Source: Escherichia phage 310Ecol104PP. Taken from it: DNA of 64,000 nucleotides. The notes below the pieces were generated by a model, which saw nothing but the letters and a program-made list of their open reading frames with translations, had not been told where the DNA came from and ran no database searches. Numbering within the stretch: position 1 is the first letter of the stretch; each line of letters opens with the position of its first letter. Shown here in pieces: positions 1,901-61,606 of the stretch. The translations under genes and the position numbers were made by a program. Location of the stretch: sequence record OR062946.1; one strand, written 5' to 3'.

Positions 1901-2294
1901 TTTTACTAAATATACAGAATAAGATGGAACAGACTATATAAGCACCACACACAGATTGAACTAATACCATTCCAAAGAACCAAACAATATTATCAAACAA
2001 TGTCTGTTTTACGTCGAAAGGACGTAAACTTACAGTAATATTATCGCCTTTTTCTATTGATGAATACATCTCTGGTGAAATATATTCGCTAAATCTATAA
2101 CCGTCTTTGAGTTCATATACAGCAATAAACGATAAACTAGACCCCTTTCCTTGAGTTCCTGTAAAGGTATTAACTACAGTAACATCATAATCTTTATAAT
2201 GCATATAATCATTAATTGCGTAATAACTATATGCAACTACTACGCATAAACAACATATCAATAAATTCAATCTTTTAATTATCAACTGTTTCAT
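1887..2294 (-). CDS. small membrane protein (hydrophobic segments at N- and C-terminus)
   Basis: ORF with hydrophobic stretches LLICCLCVVVAYSYYAI and WFFGMVLVQSVCGAYIVCSILFCIF. Confidence 0.5.
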   Translation of the reverse strand: MKQLIIKRLNLLICCLCVVVAYSYYAINDYMHYKDYDVTVVNTFTGTQGKGSSLSFIAVYELKDGYRFSEYISPEMYSSIEKGDNITVSLRPFDVKQTLFDNIVWFFGMVLVQSVCGAYIVCSILFCIFSKIEIE

Positions 2295-2349
2295 AATAAT
2301 CTCAATTAAAAGGGCTTAGAACCATTATACCATCCTTGGTATAAAGCGG

Positions 2350-2877
2350 TTATGCGAGTACCGTCTTTAACCGTTCTTCAAACTTCCGAAGAGTATTTTG
2401 GCGTTCAGCTCTTTGCTTTTTGTAAGTTTCAATACGCTCTGAAATGAGAGTGTATCGTTCATTTACTGATTCTTTCATAAAATCAGGAATTTCACGAGAA
2501 GCTTTAATCTCATCAAATTTATCAATAACAGCTTGCTCTTCAGCAATTAAGTTATCATACATCAAAATATCTTTCTTGATGAACTCAATATCTTCTTGAG
2601 TTACACGAGATAATTTAGATGCTTTATCCTTTTTGTACTGTTCGTTAGTATCACGAGACCAGTGTAATGTACGATTTTTATTCGTATTCTTGTAAATTTC
2701 TACAATACCAATCTCATCGATAATAACGATCCAATTCCAACGAGATTTGTAAATTTGTCCTCCGTCAACCGTGATTTCACCTCCGATTGAGATGTCATTA
2801 AAGAACTTGCTTTGCGCTTCAGATTTAAATTTACCATCGTTGTAATTTACCAGGTTGAAAATATCTTTAGCGTTCAT
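2350..2877 (-). CDS. hypothetical early protein (175 aa)
   Basis: ATG at 2875-2877 (MNAKDIF) preceded by GGAGGAACAC; the longer track ORF translates the promoter leader. Confidence 0.55.
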   Translation of the reverse strand: MNAKDIFNLVNYNDGKFKSEAQSKFFNDISIGGEITVDGGQIYKSRWNWIVIIDEIGIVEIYKNTNKNRTLHWSRDTNEQYKKDKASKLSRVTQEDIEFIKKDILMYDNLIAEEQAVIDKFDEIKASREIPDFMKESVNERYTLISERIETYKKQRAERQNTLRKFEERLKTVLA

Positions 2878-2902
2878 TTTGTGTTCCTCCGTAGTTGATA
2901 GT

Positions 2903-2936
2903 TGTATAGTACCACAGAGGAACGGTCTTGTAAACA
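2903..2936 (-). promoter_or_regulatory. T4-type early promoter (minus strand; -35 GTTTAC, extended -10 TGnTACTAT) with conserved leader
   Basis: Plus-strand gtaaac near 2930 and tatagtacc near 2905; same module recurs upstream of many minus-strand genes. Confidence 0.5.
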
Positions 2937-2937
2937 A

Positions 2938-3252
2938 CTAAAAGAAACTTCTTTCACAATTTTTTCCACTGAACCACGCACTCACTGCTTTCTTAGTCTC
3001 AGGAGCAGTGTTATCCATAAACCATTCAAAGGCAGCCTTTTTATGATTCTGGAGGGCTTCTCGGGCTTTAATCTGCTCACGGTCTATTAACACTAACATA
3101 TGAGCCTTTCTTGTCACCAGGGGCTTCTTATGATTTTTTGAATACTCCCAATCATTTGTCCATCGCATCGTTGTTGCGAATTGAAGTACAGCTTCCTTAA
3201 TCTTAGTTTCGTAAATTTCACGAGCCTTTGAGTATAACATCACTACCTCCAT
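2938..3252 (-). CDS. hypothetical protein (104 aa)
   Basis: ORF in early array; no motif recognised. Confidence 0.45.
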   Translation of the reverse strand: MEVVMLYSKAREIYETKIKEAVLQFATTMRWTNDWEYSKNHKKPLVTRKAHMLVLIDREQIKAREALQNHKKAAFEWFMDNTAPETKKAVSAWFSGKNCERSFF

Positions 3253-3341
3253 TTACCAGTTTAATTCTAGTCATCTTTTTGATGGCAGTCCATATAATCT
3301 ATTTCTGAACTGCCTTTTTGTCATAGAAGTCCTCTTATGAA

Positions 3342-4310
3342 TTATTTCAGAAGAGTAACCTCAGCGATTTCTTCCCAACCGTTTTTGTCGGTCATAATAA
3401 AGTCAGCAAGATAAAGAGCAGTACGCAGTGAAACATTGCGTAAACGATTAACATTGAATTTCATCCATGATAATGCTTTATAAGTTTCTTCATCAGAAAG
3501 ACCGCGTTTTTGCATCATGTCAGTTGAAAGAATAACATCTTCAACCCTGACCATAATTTCTTCATTAGTGTGAACACCCAAATCCAAATAAACTGAGCGG
3601 GACACTAGCGCTTGTAAATGTGGAGCAAGTTTAGTACCACGGTCTAATTCGCGGTCAATGTCAACGTTTGTGATAAAAACAATCGTTCCTTTAAATTCAA
3701 ACTCACGGTCAATGCCTTTTTCTTCTAAGTAAGAAGATGCAGTGCTCCAGCAGACTTTACGGGTCTCTCCAGTGTCCAGAGCAGCTTTCAGAAGATTAAG
3801 AATGTCCATATCAGAGAAAACATCCACATCATCAATCAAAAGGACAGAATTCTCTTCACGATTATTCCAAAGCTGCTCATAAAGACCGATACCAGAGATT
3901 TTACCATTAATGCTTTTATACTCAATGTATCCAATATCATTTGCTTTATTCAAAGCTTTATCTAAAGAATACGTTTTACCAATACCTGCCGCACCAGAGA
4001 TAATTAATGAACGAATATTTCCGTTAATAATACCATTCGTCATCATTCCCATAACATTAAATCTTTTATTAATGCGGGTTTTCATATCTTCATATGATTC
4101 TTTAACTTCTTCAACTTTTACACCATCATATGAAATGTCTGATTTGTAAACCCAAACACCACGACGTTTACCATCAATTTCAACAAAAACTTTACCATCT
4201 CCTTGTGCATCTACCGGAGCATTATCTGGGAACCATTCGCCTAAGAGCTCAAAAGTTCCAGAGATTTCTTTACCGAAGTAGATACCCTTATTGATAGTTA
4301 CAGTTTTCAT
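3342..4310 (-). CDS. P-loop NTPase (AAA-like ATPase)
   Basis: Walker A SGAAGIGKT and Walker B-like VLLIDDVD in the 322 aa translation; ATG at 4308-4310 preceded by GGAG. Confidence 0.7.
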   Translation of the reverse strand: MKTVTINKGIYFGKEISGTFELLGEWFPDNAPVDAQGDGKVFVEIDGKRRGVWVYKSDISYDGVKVEEVKESYEDMKTRINKRFNVMGMMTNGIINGNIRSLIISGAAGIGKTYSLDKALNKANDIGYIEYKSINGKISGIGLYEQLWNNREENSVLLIDDVDVFSDMDILNLLKAALDTGETRKVCWSTASSYLEEKGIDREFEFKGTIVFITNVDIDRELDRGTKLAPHLQALVSRSVYLDLGVHTNEEIMVRVEDVILSTDMMQKRGLSDEETYKALSWMKFNVNRLRNVSLRTALYLADFIMTDKNGWEEIAEVTLLK

Positions 4311-4686: not shown

Positions 4687-5700
4687 TCATTTATAATAAC
4701 TTCGGTGGTTTTCAAGATAGACCTTCTCAAGGAAGTCATCCCAGAAACTCATGTCTACTGTTTTAGGCATACCGTTCTTAGAAGCTTCAGTAGATGCTGC
4801 TTCTACTTGATCGACCACATCTTCCAAAAACTCTTGAACTGTTTTAAATGGATGTTTACCCAACTTCACGTCGAGAATAAATGGAGCATCTTGAAGTGGA
4901 TAGACTAAGTCACCAGTTTTGTAAATTTCCAATAGTTGGAGTCCACCACGACAAGCATGACTTAGTGCTTTCCAATCAATGCCTTCATTGGCTTCGGCCT
5001 TACGAGCACGTTCACCGTATTCAGCATCTAATTTGTTCAGTGACTGCTTAAGCTCAATAAGAGAAAGCGTTGTCTGATATTTACGACCCAACACAGTGTA
5101 GAACGTTTGTGGGCCTGTTTTCTCATGATTATGGAACACCCATTCACAGAATTCGTTTTCTGGAAGACGATGCTTAATATCTTCAACTTTAGTACGACGC
5201 TGCTTAATGGAACCGTCTTCTTGGTAATCAACCCATTGCTCAGGGATTTGATTAACTACTTTCAATACATCACGTAATGCAGCCAAACGAGAACCCTTGA
5301 CGCCGTATTTAGAAGCTTGCTTGCGGACATATCCTAAATATGATTTCATGTTAGTCGTATAAAAACGAGAACGGTTGTCTTGAATAAACTTCCACACATC
5401 AGGCAAATCGGATTTAACCACTAGTTCAGGTGGAGTGTGAAGCATATCCAACGCTACAGTTTCACCATCTGCTGCTAATTTAAAGAAATATTTAAGACTG
5501 TATAGTTCATGGTCAATATCATCTTTAGTGTTTTTAGATGATGTATTGTTAGTATTTTTACTCATATGCTCTTTAACATTTCCGATAAGAATATCACGAG
5601 CAGGAGGAACAAAGATTTCTTTAAAATCTACATCAGATTCTGGGGTAGAAGTTCCATAAAGATGACTACCAAAATAGCTTTTCATTACTGTTTTCATCAT
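4687..5700 (-). CDS. Pol-beta superfamily nucleotidyltransferase-fold protein
   Basis: N-terminal motif YFGSHLYGTSTPESDVDFKEIF (GS ... DxD) with a downstream acidic residue (ALDML); 337 aa. Confidence 0.6.
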   Translation of the reverse strand: MMKTVMKSYFGSHLYGTSTPESDVDFKEIFVPPARDILIGNVKEHMSKNTNNTSSKNTKDDIDHELYSLKYFFKLAADGETVALDMLHTPPELVVKSDLPDVWKFIQDNRSRFYTTNMKSYLGYVRKQASKYGVKGSRLAALRDVLKVVNQIPEQWVDYQEDGSIKQRRTKVEDIKHRLPENEFCEWVFHNHEKTGPQTFYTVLGRKYQTTLSLIELKQSLNKLDAEYGERARKAEANEGIDWKALSHACRGGLQLLEIYKTGDLVYPLQDAPFILDVKLGKHPFKTVQEFLEDVVDQVEAASTEASKNGMPKTVDMSFWDDFLEKVYLENHRSYYK

Positions 5701-55308: not shown

Positions 55309-56874
55309 ATGACTATCAAAACTAAAGCTGAACTTTTGAACAAATGGAAGCCATTACTGGAAGGTGAAGGTTTACCGGAAATTGCTAATAGCAAACAAGC
55401 GATTATCGCTAAAATCTTTGAAAACCAGGAAAAAGATTTCCAGACAGCTCCAGAGTACAAAGACGAAAAAATTGCTCAGGCATTTGGTTCTTTCTTAACA
55501 GAAGCTGAAATCGGCGGTGACCACGGTTACAATGCTACTAACATCGCCGCAGGTCAGACTTCTGGCGCAGTAACTCAGATTGGCCCAGCTGTTATGGGTA
55601 TGGTACGTCGTGCTATTCCTAACCTGATTGCTTTCGATATTTGCGGTGTTCAGCCGATGAACAGCCCGACTGGCCAGGTATTCGCACTGCGCGCAGTATA
55701 TGGTAAAGACCCAATCGCTTCCGGTGCTAAAGAAGCATTCCACCCAATGTATGGTCCAGATGCAATGTTCTCTGGTCAGGGTGCTGCTAAGAAATTCACA
55801 GCTCTGGCTGCTAGCACACAAACTACAGTAGGTGATATCTATACTCACTTCTTCCAGGACACTGGTACTGTGTATCTGCAGGCTTCTGCTCAAGTAACAA
55901 TTAGTTCTACTGCAGATGATGCAGCTAAATTAGATGCTGAAATTAAGAAACAAATGGAAGCTGGTGTACTGGTAGAAATCGCTGAAGGTATGGCTACTTC
56001 TGTCGCTGAACTTCAGGAAAGTTTCAACGGTTCTACCGATAACCCATGGAATGAAATGGGCTTCCGTATCGATAAACAAGTTATCGAAGCTAAATCTCGT
56101 CAGCTGAAAGCTGCTTACTCTATCGAATTAGCACAAGACCTCCGCGCTGTTCACGGTATGGATGCTGATGCTGAACTGTCTGGTATTCTGGCTACCGAAA
56201 TCATGCTGGAAATTAACCGTGAAGTTGTTGATTGGATTAACTACTCAGCTCAGGTTGGTAAATCTGGTATGACCCTGACTCCGGGTTCTAAAGCTGGTGT
56301 ATTTGACTTCCAGGATCCGATTGATATTCGTGGTGCTCGCTGGGCGGGTGAATCCTTTAAAGCTCTGTTGTTCCAGATTGACAAAGAAGCAGTTGAAATT
56401 GCTCGTCAGACTGGTCGTGGTGAAGGTAACTTCATTATCGCTTCCCGTAACGTAGTTAACGTTCTGGCTTCAGTTGATACCGGCATTTCTTATGCTGCAC
56501 AGGGTCTGGCTACCGGCTTTAACACTGATACTACCAAGTCAGTATTTGCTGGTGTTCTGGGTGGTAAATACCGTGTATATATCGACCAGTATGCTAAACA
56601 GGATTATTTCACTGTAGGTTATAAAGGTCCGAACGAAATGGATGCTGGTATTTACTATGCTCCATATGTAGCTCTGACTCCGCTGCGCGGTTCCGATCCG
56701 AAGAACTTCCAACCAGTAATGGGATTCAAAACTCGTTACGGTATCGGTATCAACCCATTTGCAGAATCCGCTGCTCAGGCTCCGGCTTCTCGCATTCAAA
56801 GCGGTATGCCTTCTATTCTGAATAGCCTTGGTAAAAACGCTTACTTCCGCCGTGTATATGTTAAAGGTATCTAA
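55309..56874 (+). CDS. 23: major capsid protein gp23
   Basis: 521 aa MTIKTKAELLNKWKPLLEGEGLPEIANSKQAIIAKIFENQEKDF; recognised as T4 gp23. Confidence 0.98.
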   Translation: MTIKTKAELLNKWKPLLEGEGLPEIANSKQAIIAKIFENQEKDFQTAPEYKDEKIAQAFGSFLTEAEIGGDHGYNATNIAAGQTSGAVTQIGPAVMGMVRRAIPNLIAFDICGVQPMNSPTGQVFALRAVYGKDPIASGAKEAFHPMYGPDAMFSGQGAAKKFTALAASTQTTVGDIYTHFFQDTGTVYLQASAQVTISSTADDAAKLDAEIKKQMEAGVLVEIAEGMATSVAELQESFNGSTDNPWNEMGFRIDKQVIEAKSRQLKAAYSIELAQDLRAVHGMDADAELSGILATEIMLEINREVVDWINYSAQVGKSGMTLTPGSKAGVFDFQDPIDIRGARWAGESFKALLFQIDKEAVEIARQTGRGEGNFIIASRNVVNVLASVDTGISYAAQGLATGFNTDTTKSVFAGVLGGKYRVYIDQYAKQDYFTVGYKGPNEMDAGIYYAPYVALTPLRGSDPKNFQPVMGFKTRYGIGINPFAESAAQAPASRIQSGMPSILNSLGKNAYFRRVYVKGI

Positions 56875-56888
56875 GATATAACCTTATT

Positions 56889-56920
56889 ATGGGAGACTTC
56901 GGTCTCCCATTCTTGTTTCT
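56889..56920 (+). terminator. rho-independent terminator after gene 23
   Basis: Hairpin gggagacttcggtctccc followed by a T-rich run. Confidence 0.6.
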
Positions 56921-56970
56921 ATACTACGCAATCTTAACTCGACGGTTGATGATATCACGGAAGTCAATAC

Positions 56971-56997
56971 GATTTTCTTGGATTTTCTTGGATTTTC
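56971..56997. repeat. 10-bp tandem direct repeat (gattttcttg x 2.7)
   Basis: gattttcttggattttcttggattttc at the 3' end of the small minus-strand ORF. Confidence 0.9.
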
Positions 56998-57190
56998 AGC
57001 CAGTTACCAGATTTGTCTTTGGTATGGGTAGAATATTCACCATTCCACCAGAAGTCAGTATGGTTTCATATTTCTTAACTAACGCATTCACTGCATTACC
57101 GTTAGGATTGGAACCATATTTTTCTACCAGGGCTTTAATGTCTTTATCAAGAGCGGAAAGAGTAGTACGAATAAAGTTTAACTTGTTCAT
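56996..57190 (-). CDS. small early-strand protein in the 23-24 intergenic region (64 aa)
   Basis: ATG at 57188-57190 with SD GAGGAG 7 nt upstream and an early promoter module; Lys-rich helical. Confidence 0.55.
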   Translation of the reverse strand: MNKLNFIRTTLSALDKDIKALVEKYGSNPNGNAVNALVKKYETILTSGGMVNILPIPKTNLVTG

Positions 57191-57216
57191 TTTAATCTCC
57201 TCATGTTTTTGATAGG

Positions 57217-57250
57217 TCTATAGTAACATGTGATAACCTTGCTGTAAACA
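57217..57250 (-). promoter_or_regulatory. T4-type early promoter (minus strand) for the 64 aa ORF
   Basis: gtaaac at 57244-57249 and tatagtaac near 57219. Confidence 0.5.
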
Positions 57251-57255
57251 ACTTT

Positions 57256-57263
57256 TATAAATA
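57256..57263 (+). promoter_or_regulatory. T4 late promoter (TATAAATA) for gene 24
   Basis: Exact TATAAATA about 29 nt upstream of the gene 24 ATG; back-to-back with the minus-strand early promoter. Confidence 0.6.
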
Positions 57264-57291
57264 AACATATACCCTCAATAAGGAAAGCGCA

Positions 57292-58575
57292 ATGGCTAAA
57301 ATCAACGAACTTTTGCGCGAATCAACCACAACGAATAGCAACTCAATCGGTCGCCCAAATCTCGTTGCTTTGACTCGCGCTACCACTAAATTAATATATT
57401 CTGACATTGTAGCAACGCAAAGAACTAATCAACCTGTTGCTGCTTTTTATGGTATCAAATACCTTAACCCAGATAACGAATTTACATTTAAAACTGGTGC
57501 TACTTACGCTGGCGAAGCTGGGTACGTAGACCGAGAACAAATCACAGAATTAACAGAAGAGTCTAAATTAACTCTCAATAAAGGCGATTTATTCAAATAT
57601 AATAATATCGTTTATAAAGTATTAGAAGATACACCATTTGCTGATATTGAAGAAAGCGATTTAGAATTAGCTCTTCAGATTGCAATTGTTCTTTTAAAGG
57701 TTCGTCTATTTTCTGATGCTGCAGTAACAAGCAAATTTGAAAACTCTGATAGCGAAATTGCGGATGCTAGATTCCAGATTAATAAATGGCAAACCGCAGT
57801 TAAATCTCGTAAACTTAAAACTGGCATTACAGTTGAATTAGCACAAGATTTAGAAGCAAATGGATTCGATGCTCCTAATTTCTTGGAAGATTTGCTTGCA
57901 ACTGAAATGGCAGATGAAATCAATAAAGATATTCTGCAATCTTTGATTACAGTATCAAAACGCTATAAAGTTACAGGAATTACTGATAGTGGATTCATCG
58001 ATTTGAGTTATGCATCTGCTCCTGAAGCTGGTCGTTCATTATACCGAATGGTATGTGAAATGGTTTCGCATATCCAAAAAGAATCAACTTATACAGCAAC
58101 GTTCTGTGTTGCTTCTGCTCGTGCCGCTGCGATTCTTGCTGCATCAGGTTGGTTAAAACATAAACCAGAAGATGACAAATATCTTTCGCAAAATGCCTAT
58201 GGGTTCTTAGCTAATGGTTTACCGCTTTATTGCGATACTAACAGCCCATTAGATTATGTAATCGTTGGCGTAGTAGAAAATATTGGTGAAAAAGAAATTG
58301 TCGGATCAATTTTCTATGCTCCGTATACAGAAGGTCTTGACTTAGATGACCCTGAACATGTAGGTGCATTTAAAGTTGTAGTTGATCCAGAAAGCTTACA
58401 ACCATCTATCGGTTTATTGGTTAGATATGCTTTATCTGCAAATCCTTACACTGTAGCAAAAGATGAAAAAGAAGCAAGAATAATTGATGGTGGAGACATG
58501 GATAAAATGGCGGGTCGTTCAGATTTGTCTGTTTTATTAGGTGTTAAATTACCAAAAATTATCGTTGATGAATAA
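57292..58575 (+). CDS. 24: capsid vertex protein gp24
   Basis: 427 aa gp23 paralog in T4 order. Confidence 0.95.
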   Translation: MAKINELLRESTTTNSNSIGRPNLVALTRATTKLIYSDIVATQRTNQPVAAFYGIKYLNPDNEFTFKTGATYAGEAGYVDREQITELTEESKLTLNKGDLFKYNNIVYKVLEDTPFADIEESDLELALQIAIVLLKVRLFSDAAVTSKFENSDSEIADARFQINKWQTAVKSRKLKTGITVELAQDLEANGFDAPNFLEDLLATEMADEINKDILQSLITVSKRYKVTGITDSGFIDLSYASAPEAGRSLYRMVCEMVSHIQKESTYTATFCVASARAAAILAASGWLKHKPEDDKYLSQNAYGFLANGLPLYCDTNSPLDYVIVGVVENIGEKEIVGSIFYAPYTEGLDLDDPEHVGAFKVVVDPESLQPSIGLLVRYALSANPYTVAKDEKEARIIDGGDMDKMAGRSDLSVLLGVKLPKIIVDE

Positions 58576-60187: not shown

Positions 60188-61606
60188 TTATGGATAGGTA
60201 TAGATGATACCAGTTTCTAAAGCAGTTTTATGAATGATGTATCCATTACGCGATTCTTGAACATCAACTTCTGGATAGTCTTTCATCATCTTCTGAAGAG
60301 TGTAACGATGCAGGTAGTATTTACTATCTGGATCTTCAGTTTTCCAATCTTTACCTTCTTCAGTCATTTTTTGGATTTCATCCATAACCCACCAACCGCA
60401 CCAGATGTAAGCTGAGCTACGGTGTGGAAGAGGATGAACATAAGGTAATTCACCTTCTGGTTCTGGAGCAACTTTATCAGTTACCTGAACTTGACCTGTT
60501 GTTTTAACTGTTTTGCTATCATAATCAGTTGCTGTAACGACAGCAGTAACTTCAATAGTTTGACTTCCAACAGATGAAGTATCAACGGTGTATACATTAG
60601 TTGACCCTTCTACAGGAGAAGAATCTTTCTTCCATGAATATTCAATTTGCGCTTCTTCTGGAGCACCAGTAACATTAGCAGTAAATGTAGCCGAAGCATC
60701 TTGTTGAACGTTAATAGAAGGAGGAGTCAATGTAACCTGTGGATTCATTGTCTTCTTATTAACCGTTAATGATACTTCATTCGAAGTAACTTCCTTTTCA
60801 TTGTAATTTTCTGCAGTTACTTGGGCTACGCATTTAATTCTTTTTACTCCACTTGTAGTTGGAGTATAGCTAAATGTAGAGTTAGTTTCTCCACTAATTT
60901 GAGAATCATCTACATACCATTTATATGTAGCAGACGCTCCATCAGGTTGAGAAACTAAAGCAGCAGTAAATTGAACCGGGGTTCCAATTACTCCTGCTGG
61001 AGGACTATCAGGAGTTACTGCCAAAGTAGTTGTCTGCTCCTTTTTATTAACAGTCAGTGATACTTCATTAGAAGTAACGCTTAGTGCATCATAATCTGTC
61101 GCGGTTACTTGAGCTACACACTTAATTTTTTTAACTCCGCTTGTGGCAGGAGTGTAATTGAATGTAGCGCTAGTTGCTTCGTCCACAGGAGAACCGTCAA
61201 CGTACCATTGATACGTAGCAGATGCACCTGATGGCTGTGAAGCTAAAGCGGCAGTAAATTCAATAGCTGTTCCGATTACTCCAGCATCAGGGCTACCAGG
61301 AGTTACGGCTAAAGTAGTTGTTTGTGTCTTATTTTGAATTGTGATAGTTGTACTAATTTCAGCTGTTTCGGGACTACTATCGGCAACTTGATTTGTTGCA
61401 ACTACTTTAATAGTCTTTTGACCGGCAGGTCCTTTTAGTACATAACTAAAAGTTGCTGACGTTTCTTCCTGTTGAACATTATCTACAGTCCAAGCATATG
61501 TAATAGGTCCATCTCCAGTTTGACCACTGGGTGTAGCAGTAAACTGCTGAGTCTGATCTATAACTCCAGTAGGTGTTTTAGGAGTTATATCAACTGTAAA
61601 AGTCAT
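60188..61606 (-). CDS. hoc: highly immunogenic outer capsid protein Hoc with an extra tandem Ig-like domain
   Basis: 472 aa; N-terminus MTFTVDITPKTPTGVID and C-terminus GWWVMDEIQKM ... IIYTYP as in T4 Hoc (376 aa as recalled); two tandem ~96 aa Ig-like copies. Confidence 0.9.
   Translation of the reverse strand: MTFTVDITPKTPTGVIDQTQQFTATPSGQTGDGPITYAWTVDNVQQEETSATFSYVLKGPAGQKTIKVVATNQVADSSPETAEISTTITIQNKTQTTTLAVTPGSPDAGVIGTAIEFTAALASQPSGASATYQWYVDGSPVDEATSATFNYTPATSGVKKIKCVAQVTATDYDALSVTSNEVSLTVNKKEQTTTLAVTPDSPPAGVIGTPVQFTAALVSQPDGASATYKWYVDDSQISGETNSTFSYTPTTSGVKRIKCVAQVTAENYNEKEVTSNEVSLTVNKKTMNPQVTLTPPSINVQQDASATFTANVTGAPEEAQIEYSWKKDSSPVEGSTNVYTVDTSSVGSQTIEVTAVVTATDYDSKTVKTTGQVQVTDKVAPEPEGELPYVHPLPHRSSAYIWCGWWVMDEIQKMTEEGKDWKTEDPDSKYYLHRYTLQKMMKDYPEVDVQESRNGYIIHKTALETGIIYTYP
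60755..61330 (-). repeat. tandem in-frame duplication (2 x ~288 bp) encoding two Ig-like domains inside hoc
   Basis: Protein copies QTTTLAVTPGSPDAGVIGTAIEFTAAL ... SLTVNKK and QTTTLAVTPDSPPAGVIGTPVQFTAAL ... SLTVNKK, about 75 percent identical by eye. Confidence 0.85.

Follow-up and report, generated by a model that had tools for sequence, protein, structure and literature searches.

A small antisense cassette with an early-type promoter between genes 23 and 24 of Escherichia phage 310Ecol104PP carries a frameshifted copy of an 88-aa T-even gene

Layout of the spacer between genes 23 and 24

We have analysed a window of 64,000 nucleotides from Escherichia phage 310Ecol104PP, a Tequatrovirus isolated for an anti-mastitis cocktail and assembled with SPAdes from Illumina reads (PMC11510089), and have focussed on the spacer between genes 23 and 24. 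In the phage collection, vB_EcoM-G28 comes closest to it (96.9% over 10 kb). The features of the spacer are summarized in Table 1. It holds a 64-aa ORF on the minus strand, with a strong Shine-Dalgarno sequence and an early-type promoter of its own, which lies back-to-back with the late promoter of gene 24 (7 nt separate the latter from the -35 hexamer). Apart from this distance, all of it had been described in the initial annotation, and it was borne out here. The gene 23 terminator hairpin doubles as the downstream boundary of this antisense cassette. A homologous hairpin was found in G28, JS98, PhAPEC2 and T4, and an Rfam scan of positions 56700-57500 returned a sub-threshold match to this hairpin and nothing else. 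On the other side, in most Tequatrovirus genomes the homology to 310Ecol104PP returns exactly at 57256, that is, at the gene 24 late promoter. There is also a plus-strand ORF of 107 aa (56889-57212) overlapping the cassette, which we discarded as mirroring the real gene: the minus strand is favoured by homology, promoter and Shine-Dalgarno sequence alike.

Table 1. Features of the spacer between genes 23 and 24 in 310Ecol104PP (positions in the 64,000-nt window).
Feature	Position	Strand	Remarks and basis
Gene 23	55309-56874		521 aa
Gene 23 hairpin terminator	56889-56920 with tail (hairpin 56889-56910)	+	GGGAGAC-TTCG-GTCTCCC, T-rich tail
Ancestral stop TAG	56924-56926	-	
Former 3' coding part, no longer translated	56924-56995	-	Translation past TGA; alignment to JS98, G28, IME08
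10-bp tandem repeat, 2.7 copies	56971-56997		Tandem Repeats Finder
Premature stop TGA, product of the upstream frameshift	56996-56998	-	
64-aa ORF	56996-57190	-	ATG start, MNKLNFIRTT...
Frameshifted segment, codons 44-64 (ILTSGGMVNILPIPKTNLVTG)	56999-57061	-	Alignment, translation
10-bp deletion junction (TGGCTTATGC lost, gene strand)	57059-57061	-	DNA alignment
Native N-terminal coding part, codons 1-43	57062-57190	-	PHROG 6003 match, family alignment A2, structure models
Shine-Dalgarno GAGGAG	57197-57202	-	6 nt 5' of ATG
Sigma-70/T4-early-type promoter TTTACA-17-TACTAT	57248-57220	-	-35 at 57243-57248; TG-extended -10 at 57220-57225
Gene 24 late promoter TATAAATA	57256-57263	+	28 nt 5' of the gene 24 ATG (57292)
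Gene 24	57292-58575		427 aa; followed by rnlB

The early promoters of T4 have the consensus (G)TTTAC(A) at -35, a spacer of about 17 nt, TAnnnT at -10 and an A/T-rich upstream region. The antisense promoter of 310Ecol104PP has the -35 hexamer, the 17-nt spacer and the TG-extended -10 of this type and is preceded by ATAAAAGTTG. It is the sole minus-strand sigma-70-like site between 56700 and 57450. The count of such sites alone is no higher than in shuffled sequences (2 found, 2.2 expected); what is conserved is the position, which is kept across four genera despite divergence of the spacer sequence. TTTACA-17-TACTAT is present in JS98, IME08, G28, 310Ecol104PP and PhAPEC2, and VR7 has TTTACA-17-CATAAT. 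The empty 23-24 spacer of phage RB10 lacks the promoter. A literature search found no transcriptome for any phage carrying the cassette, and to judge from the promoter sequence the gene would be transcribed early.

The 88-aa family and its predicted fold

Residues 1-44 of the 64-aa ORF match positions 1-44 of PHROG 6003 (E = 4.7e-20), which establishes a coding origin of the ORF beyond chance. The match ends at residue 44 of the 90 in the profile, while the 88-aa protein of G28 matches positions 1-88 (E = 5.8e-50). The members of PHROG 6003 are uninterrupted proteins of 88-93 aa, whereas the copy in 310Ecol104PP is shifted in frame by a 10-bp deletion and ends at 64 aa. The initial annotation had described a gene of 64 aa, overlooking the deletion. 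Its natural form is a different one: in the relatives that have the same spacer, the protein has 88-93 aa. The ORF does lie in the slot typical of the family, in antisense orientation in the 23-24 spacer.

With the 88-aa protein as tblastn query we found 237 phage genomes in which a single place covers at least 80% of the query, and all of the 60 rows sampled were single uninterrupted pieces. The homologues lie at this position downstream of the same promoter and are of the types JS98 orf173, RB69ORF188c/189c and VR7 ORF190c, with an intact length of 84-93 aa: JS98 orf173 (EpJS98_gp173) and G28_00177 have 88 aa, VR7 ORF190c has 93 aa, and IME08 orf166 is annotated as 93 aa from an upstream ATG. 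JS98 orf173, G28_00177, IME08 orf166 and VR7 ORF190c share with the 310Ecol104PP copy the slot, the promoter and the Shine-Dalgarno sequence; over residues 1-43 this copy has 98-100% identity with the proteins of G28 and JS98. A more distant branch is found in Mosigvirus (RB69ORF188c type, 89 aa, e.g., PhAPEC2 LD34_gp220), with 31-38% identity over the full length; slot and promoter are the same and the sequence subtype is different. Among intact copies compared in pairs by the Nei-Gojobori method dN/dS was 0.03-0.13, with dS up to saturation. By these ratios, the intact gene is under strong purifying selection.

AlphaFold2, run on a 10-sequence alignment of the family (A2), predicts the 88-aa form as a single compact unit with a pLDDT of 92.3 and the succession H3-25, H31-48, E52-61, E67-71 and H77-87, in which the beta-hairpin and the last helix pack on the helical hairpin to form one domain. 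Helix 1 and most of helix 2 are encoded by codons 1-43, as is the conserved LVEKYG..NGNA loop. In the model of the 64-aa product only these two helices are left (pLDDT ca. 80, falling to 42-52 in the frameshifted tail), so that the helix-helix-beta-hairpin-helix fold is not preserved. Of the 16 positions that are invariant in alignment A2, 12 lie within the retained residues 1-43; A45, W51, Q71 and I80 are lost.

Searches for relatives of assigned function were fruitless. Pfam gave no family for either the 64-aa or the 88-aa form, and no GIY-YIG nuclease domain, NCBIfam nothing meaningful, the PDB sequences searched with the family profile nothing significant, and Foldseek no match in the PDB; in BFVD the family itself was found and no other neighbour. 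When 1.84 billion representatives were searched exhaustively with an HMM, no more than ca. 7 real clusters of small proteins (84-90 aa) came up. Three other matches were rejected as spurious: P0031 and P0034, both long and in multiple stretches, belong to repeat proteins, and P0035 comes from a chimeric contig. One 90-aa member (P0027) bears the name "NADPH-dependent curcumin reductase CurA" in its JGI source, almost certainly a mis-transferred annotation. No paper on RB69ORF188c was found in a literature search. The family is already catalogued and none of its members has an assigned function; by sequence searches and the predicted structure it is an orphan restricted to T-even phages, with an orphan fold. 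Judging by other small early proteins of T4, its product would probably target a host component within minutes of the onset of infection.

Two 10-bp lesions in the 310Ecol104PP copy

Aligned to JS98, G28 and IME08, the 310Ecol104PP locus differs by a 10-bp deletion and a 10-bp insertion, exactly, 63 bp apart in DNA that is otherwise ca. 98% identical. The deletion falls after codon 43 and shifts the frame, so that 21 unrelated residues follow (the junction peptide reads ...KKYETILTSGGMVNILPIPK) before the premature TGA. The insertion, 63 bp downstream, is one unit added to a pre-existing 1.7-copy repeat, GAAAATCCAAGAAAATC. Because the two indels cancel, the ancestral frame returns right after the TGA and continues through KSKK and the native last 19 residues (IQENRIDFRDIINRRVKIA) to TAG, for a total of 88 codons. 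The stop intervenes whichever of the two events came first, and the second indel therefore gave no rescue.

The repeat has a period of 10, 100% matches and a score of 54 in Tandem Repeats Finder (unit GATTTTCTTG on the plus strand, GAAAATCCAA on the gene strand). Among the ca. 8 arrays of the 64-kb window, it is the sole one with a period that is not a multiple of 3. It had been placed at the 3' end of the gene and tentatively put down either to slippage or to a recombination scar. The 2.7 copies do overlap the TGA, at the first repeat unit on the gene strand, but the natural stop is the TAG situated 72 nt further on. The slippage origin is upheld by the comparison with the relatives, which have 1.7 copies of GAAAATCCAA against 2.7 in 310Ecol104PP. 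A perfect extra unit on a pre-existing 10-bp repeat is a trait in common with slipped-strand duplication or deletion at short tandem repeats, a general mechanism of mutation. Unlike in a contingency locus, no variation in copy number was seen among isolates, the relatives all having 1.7 copies. Since the repeat starts at the premature stop, it is translationally silent and selectively neutral in the present allele.

This allele has been seen only once. The 64-aa protein (WLY86363.1, hypothetical protein 310Ecol104PP_00148) is a singleton cluster among ca. 15 billion proteins, while in the same collection the 88-aa form makes a cluster of 48 members from many contigs. A tblastn search with the 64-aa query did retrieve 91 genomes at a coverage of at least 80%, but in each of the full-coverage matches listed the hit splits into two pieces whose frames differ, and the span is 202 nt instead of 192 nt. 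The deletion junction was found neither in IMG/VR nor in JGI metagenome contigs and the triple-copy form of the repeat was not found in IMG/VR, where 5 contigs have the wild-type junction and the 1.7-copy form. A 27-mer with the triple repeat occurs in 2 bacterial MAGs and 5 metagenome contigs that have nothing else in common with the locus, and we attribute these to chance. Conservation in relatives with the same spacer, which had been proposed as the test of the ORF, thus holds for the 88-aa form and fails for the 64-aa one.

An allele seen a single time raises the question of sequencing or assembly artefacts in a phage that really carries the intact 88-aa gene. Along 3.4 kb aligned to G28 (97.65% identity) there are just three indels (+10, -10 and -1), and all three are within the 300-bp cassette, one of them in a tandem repeat and another in an A-run, a clustering that might look suspicious. 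However, it is also what is expected for a gene freed from selection. Besides, 10-bp indels are rarely made when Illumina reads are assembled with SPAdes, the sequence around the 10-bp deletion is unique and free of repeats, and the large flanking genes are intact (genes 23 and 24 have zero indels compared to G28). We consider it very improbable that the lesions are artefacts.

The third indel, of 1 bp, affects the A-run at 57189-57196 (AAAA instead of the AAAAA of the relatives), reducing the Shine-Dalgarno spacing from 7 to 6 nt. It also puts out of frame the upstream ATG (MRRLK...) that serves as the start in some annotations, giving 93 aa, which favours the downstream ATG as the true start. 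As for substitutions, the gene has six SNPs compared to G28, all of them synonymous in the ancestral frame, including one derived in 310Ecol104PP (AAC to AAT at 57042) inside the segment that is now shifted. This suggests that the frame was under selection until lately and that the damage is recent.

We think it likely that the locus is a small antisense early-gene cassette with a copy of the 88-aa family gene inactivated by frameshift, plus a separate slippage of the repeat. The cassette would have entered the spacer with the gene 23 terminator on one side and the late promoter of gene 24 on the other, and would consist of the sigma-70-type early promoter, a leader with GAGGAG and the gene that in relatives encodes the compact 88-aa protein. 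In 310Ecol104PP the 10-bp deletion after codon 43 would have inactivated the gene, the 21 unrelated residues and the TGA leaving a 64-aa product that would keep the N-terminal helical hairpin without the beta-hairpin and the C-terminal helix, and the 10-bp repeat would be an independent slipped-strand duplication on the pre-existing 1.7 copies. The 310Ecol104PP copy is most likely a recent pseudogene or null allele, and we suggest that the annotation of WLY86363.1 (64 aa) be corrected to that of a frameshifted allele, or pseudogene, of the JS98 orf173-type gene for 88 aa. Two observations go against this explanation. One is that 12 of the 16 invariant positions are in the 43 retained residues, so that the stump may keep partial function. 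The other is that indels of equal size that cancel exactly look like compensation and not like two independent neutral events; given a second indel with a length not divisible by 3, chance alone would have it cancel the first in about half of the cases.

The first of these observations would fit a functional shortened variant, in which the N-terminal helical hairpin with its LVEKYG..NGNA loop is active without the C-terminal half. Promoter, Shine-Dalgarno sequence and start codon are all intact in this allele, and the two helices are retained in the AlphaFold2 model at a pLDDT of ca. 80. Nevertheless, purifying selection extends to the C-terminal half, which the 237 other copies all retain (60 rows sampled), and in the 88-aa model the beta-hairpin and last helix belong to the same domain as the hairpin on which they pack. 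With a singleton allele that has moreover lost the invariant A45, W51, Q71 and I80, such a variant appears unlikely.

The second observation brings up a compensated frameshift in which read-through of the UGA gives a protein of 88 aa with native termini and a recoded 25-residue middle. Of the stop codons of E. coli, UGA is the leakiest one, a point in favour of this reading, and translation past it gives exactly 88 codons ending in the native 19 residues. However, the recoded middle removes the beta-hairpin, W51 and Q71, and the predicted 88-aa fold could not form. With the stop in the way in either order of the indels, the second one offered no rescue on which selection could act. Neither did we find any read-through signal, and the in-frame TGA is limited to 310Ecol104PP, being absent from the 237 relatives (60 rows sampled), contrary to what programmed read-through would imply. 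The +1 and -1 indels of RB69 (see below), which also have a net length of zero, are plainly unrescued, and such pairs arise by chance. We regard read-through as exceedingly improbable in this specific form. A somewhat broader idea is that of a true compensated frameshift in which low-level read-through of the UGA samples an altered form of the orphan-fold early protein or, in a milder version, that of a 43-residue hairpin that is the active module of a host-directed early protein; we would give it a very small chance.

Cargo of the 23-24 spacer

We found the 23-24 spacer of T-even phages in four states: empty, with segD, with the small ORF, and with the small ORF plus segD. Many Tequatroviruses have no cassette, e.g., RB10, with a spacer of 83 bp. 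The initial annotation had noted that T4 has segD at this place, and indeed the T4 genome carries it there in antisense orientation. This gene for a free-standing GIY-YIG homing endonuclease shares with the small ORF the spacer, the orientation and a promoter that aligns with it, whereas 310Ecol104PP has no segD in the spacer and its small protein has no GIY-YIG similarity in Pfam. In IME08, segD is directly downstream of the small ORF, in one transcription unit, and inserted ca. 45 bp from the position of the repeat.

The segD gene begins 4 nt past the stop of the small ORF (TAAAATATG; positions 2206-2213 of the IME08 locus, L002), an arrangement also found in vB_EcoM_005 (L013). The divergence between alleles with and without segD is confined to the small ORF's last 4 codons and, on sequence comparison, marks the probable boundary of the segD insertion.

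A promoter specific to segD could not be identified according to a 2010 review (PMC2988022), and our literature search found no T4 transcriptome paper that mentions segD. T4 segD is preceded by TTTACA-17-TATTAT with TG (a 10/12 match; minus strand, positions 5254-5282 of the T4 locus L015, from NC_000866), and this match aligns with the small-ORF promoter of 310Ecol104PP, at 57220-57248. The promoter is kept across cargo types, which suggests that the T4 site drives segD.

A hot-spot with four states, in which segD of IME08 sits 4 nt past the small-ORF stop and ca. 45 bp from the repeat, makes one think that a homing endonuclease of the SegD type cleaved here and that the indels are scars of repair or alleles of resistance. 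But nothing puts a SegD cleavage site at either indel, and the segD-containing allele of IME08 and the segD-less one of JS98 are identical across both indel positions. T-even phages mend double-strand breaks by homologous recombination and not by end joining, and there is no co-converted foreign tract beside the indels. The same lack of foreign sequence flanking either of them leaves the recombination scar suggested in the initial annotation without support. We find it extremely unlikely that SegD-type cleavage produced these indels, and return to ordinary decay of the gene by frameshift.

The gene also appears broken elsewhere. In the RB69 reference a +1 and a -1 indel split it into the annotated ORF189c (29 aa) and ORF188c (41 aa). 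As in 310Ecol104PP, the split involves two cancelling indels, but the lesions are different and independent. The +1 insertion sits in a cluster of mismatches, and the split might be either a real pseudogene or the result of old Sanger sequencing errors in the reference. The RB69 fragments (positions 9292-9532 of L014, from NC_004928) add up to a single gene of 89 aa, which other Mosigviruses have intact. For phage mogra and a few contigs, a C-terminal piece of 51 aa is all that is called. These independent breaks in RB69 and mogra indicate that the gene is dispensable, at least in the laboratory, and being accessory, dispensable cargo of a variable slot fits the 310Ecol104PP copy as a recent null allele.

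The 23-24 spacer of T-even phages can be seen as the seat of a mobile early-promoter cassette with changing cargo: nothing, a small protein of orphan fold, segD, or the two together. Where it occurs, the small protein shows strong conservation (dN/dS ca. 0.1), yet it has been independently broken at least three times (310Ecol104PP, RB69 and mogra). Such a pattern is typical of a host-dependent accessory gene and makes the family a reasonable, if not urgent, target for functional work. What we describe is ordinary decay of an accessory gene, and current understanding is not challenged by it. The wider points are modest, namely a conserved family with an orphan fold, and an early-type promoter common to the small ORF and to T4 segD.

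Some differences between genomes were seen on the gene 24 side of the spacer. Dhakaviruses have two tandem gene 24 paralogues, 24a and 24b (positions 1918-3421 of the JS98 locus, L001, and 2578-4081 of L002 from IME08). 310Ecol104PP has a single gene 24 with rnlB directly next to it, and downstream of rnlB there is a 288-bp tandem repeat (60752-61321, 2.0 copies, 75% identity), whose position points to hoc (head outer capsid) and the Ig-like domains that are repeated in this gene.
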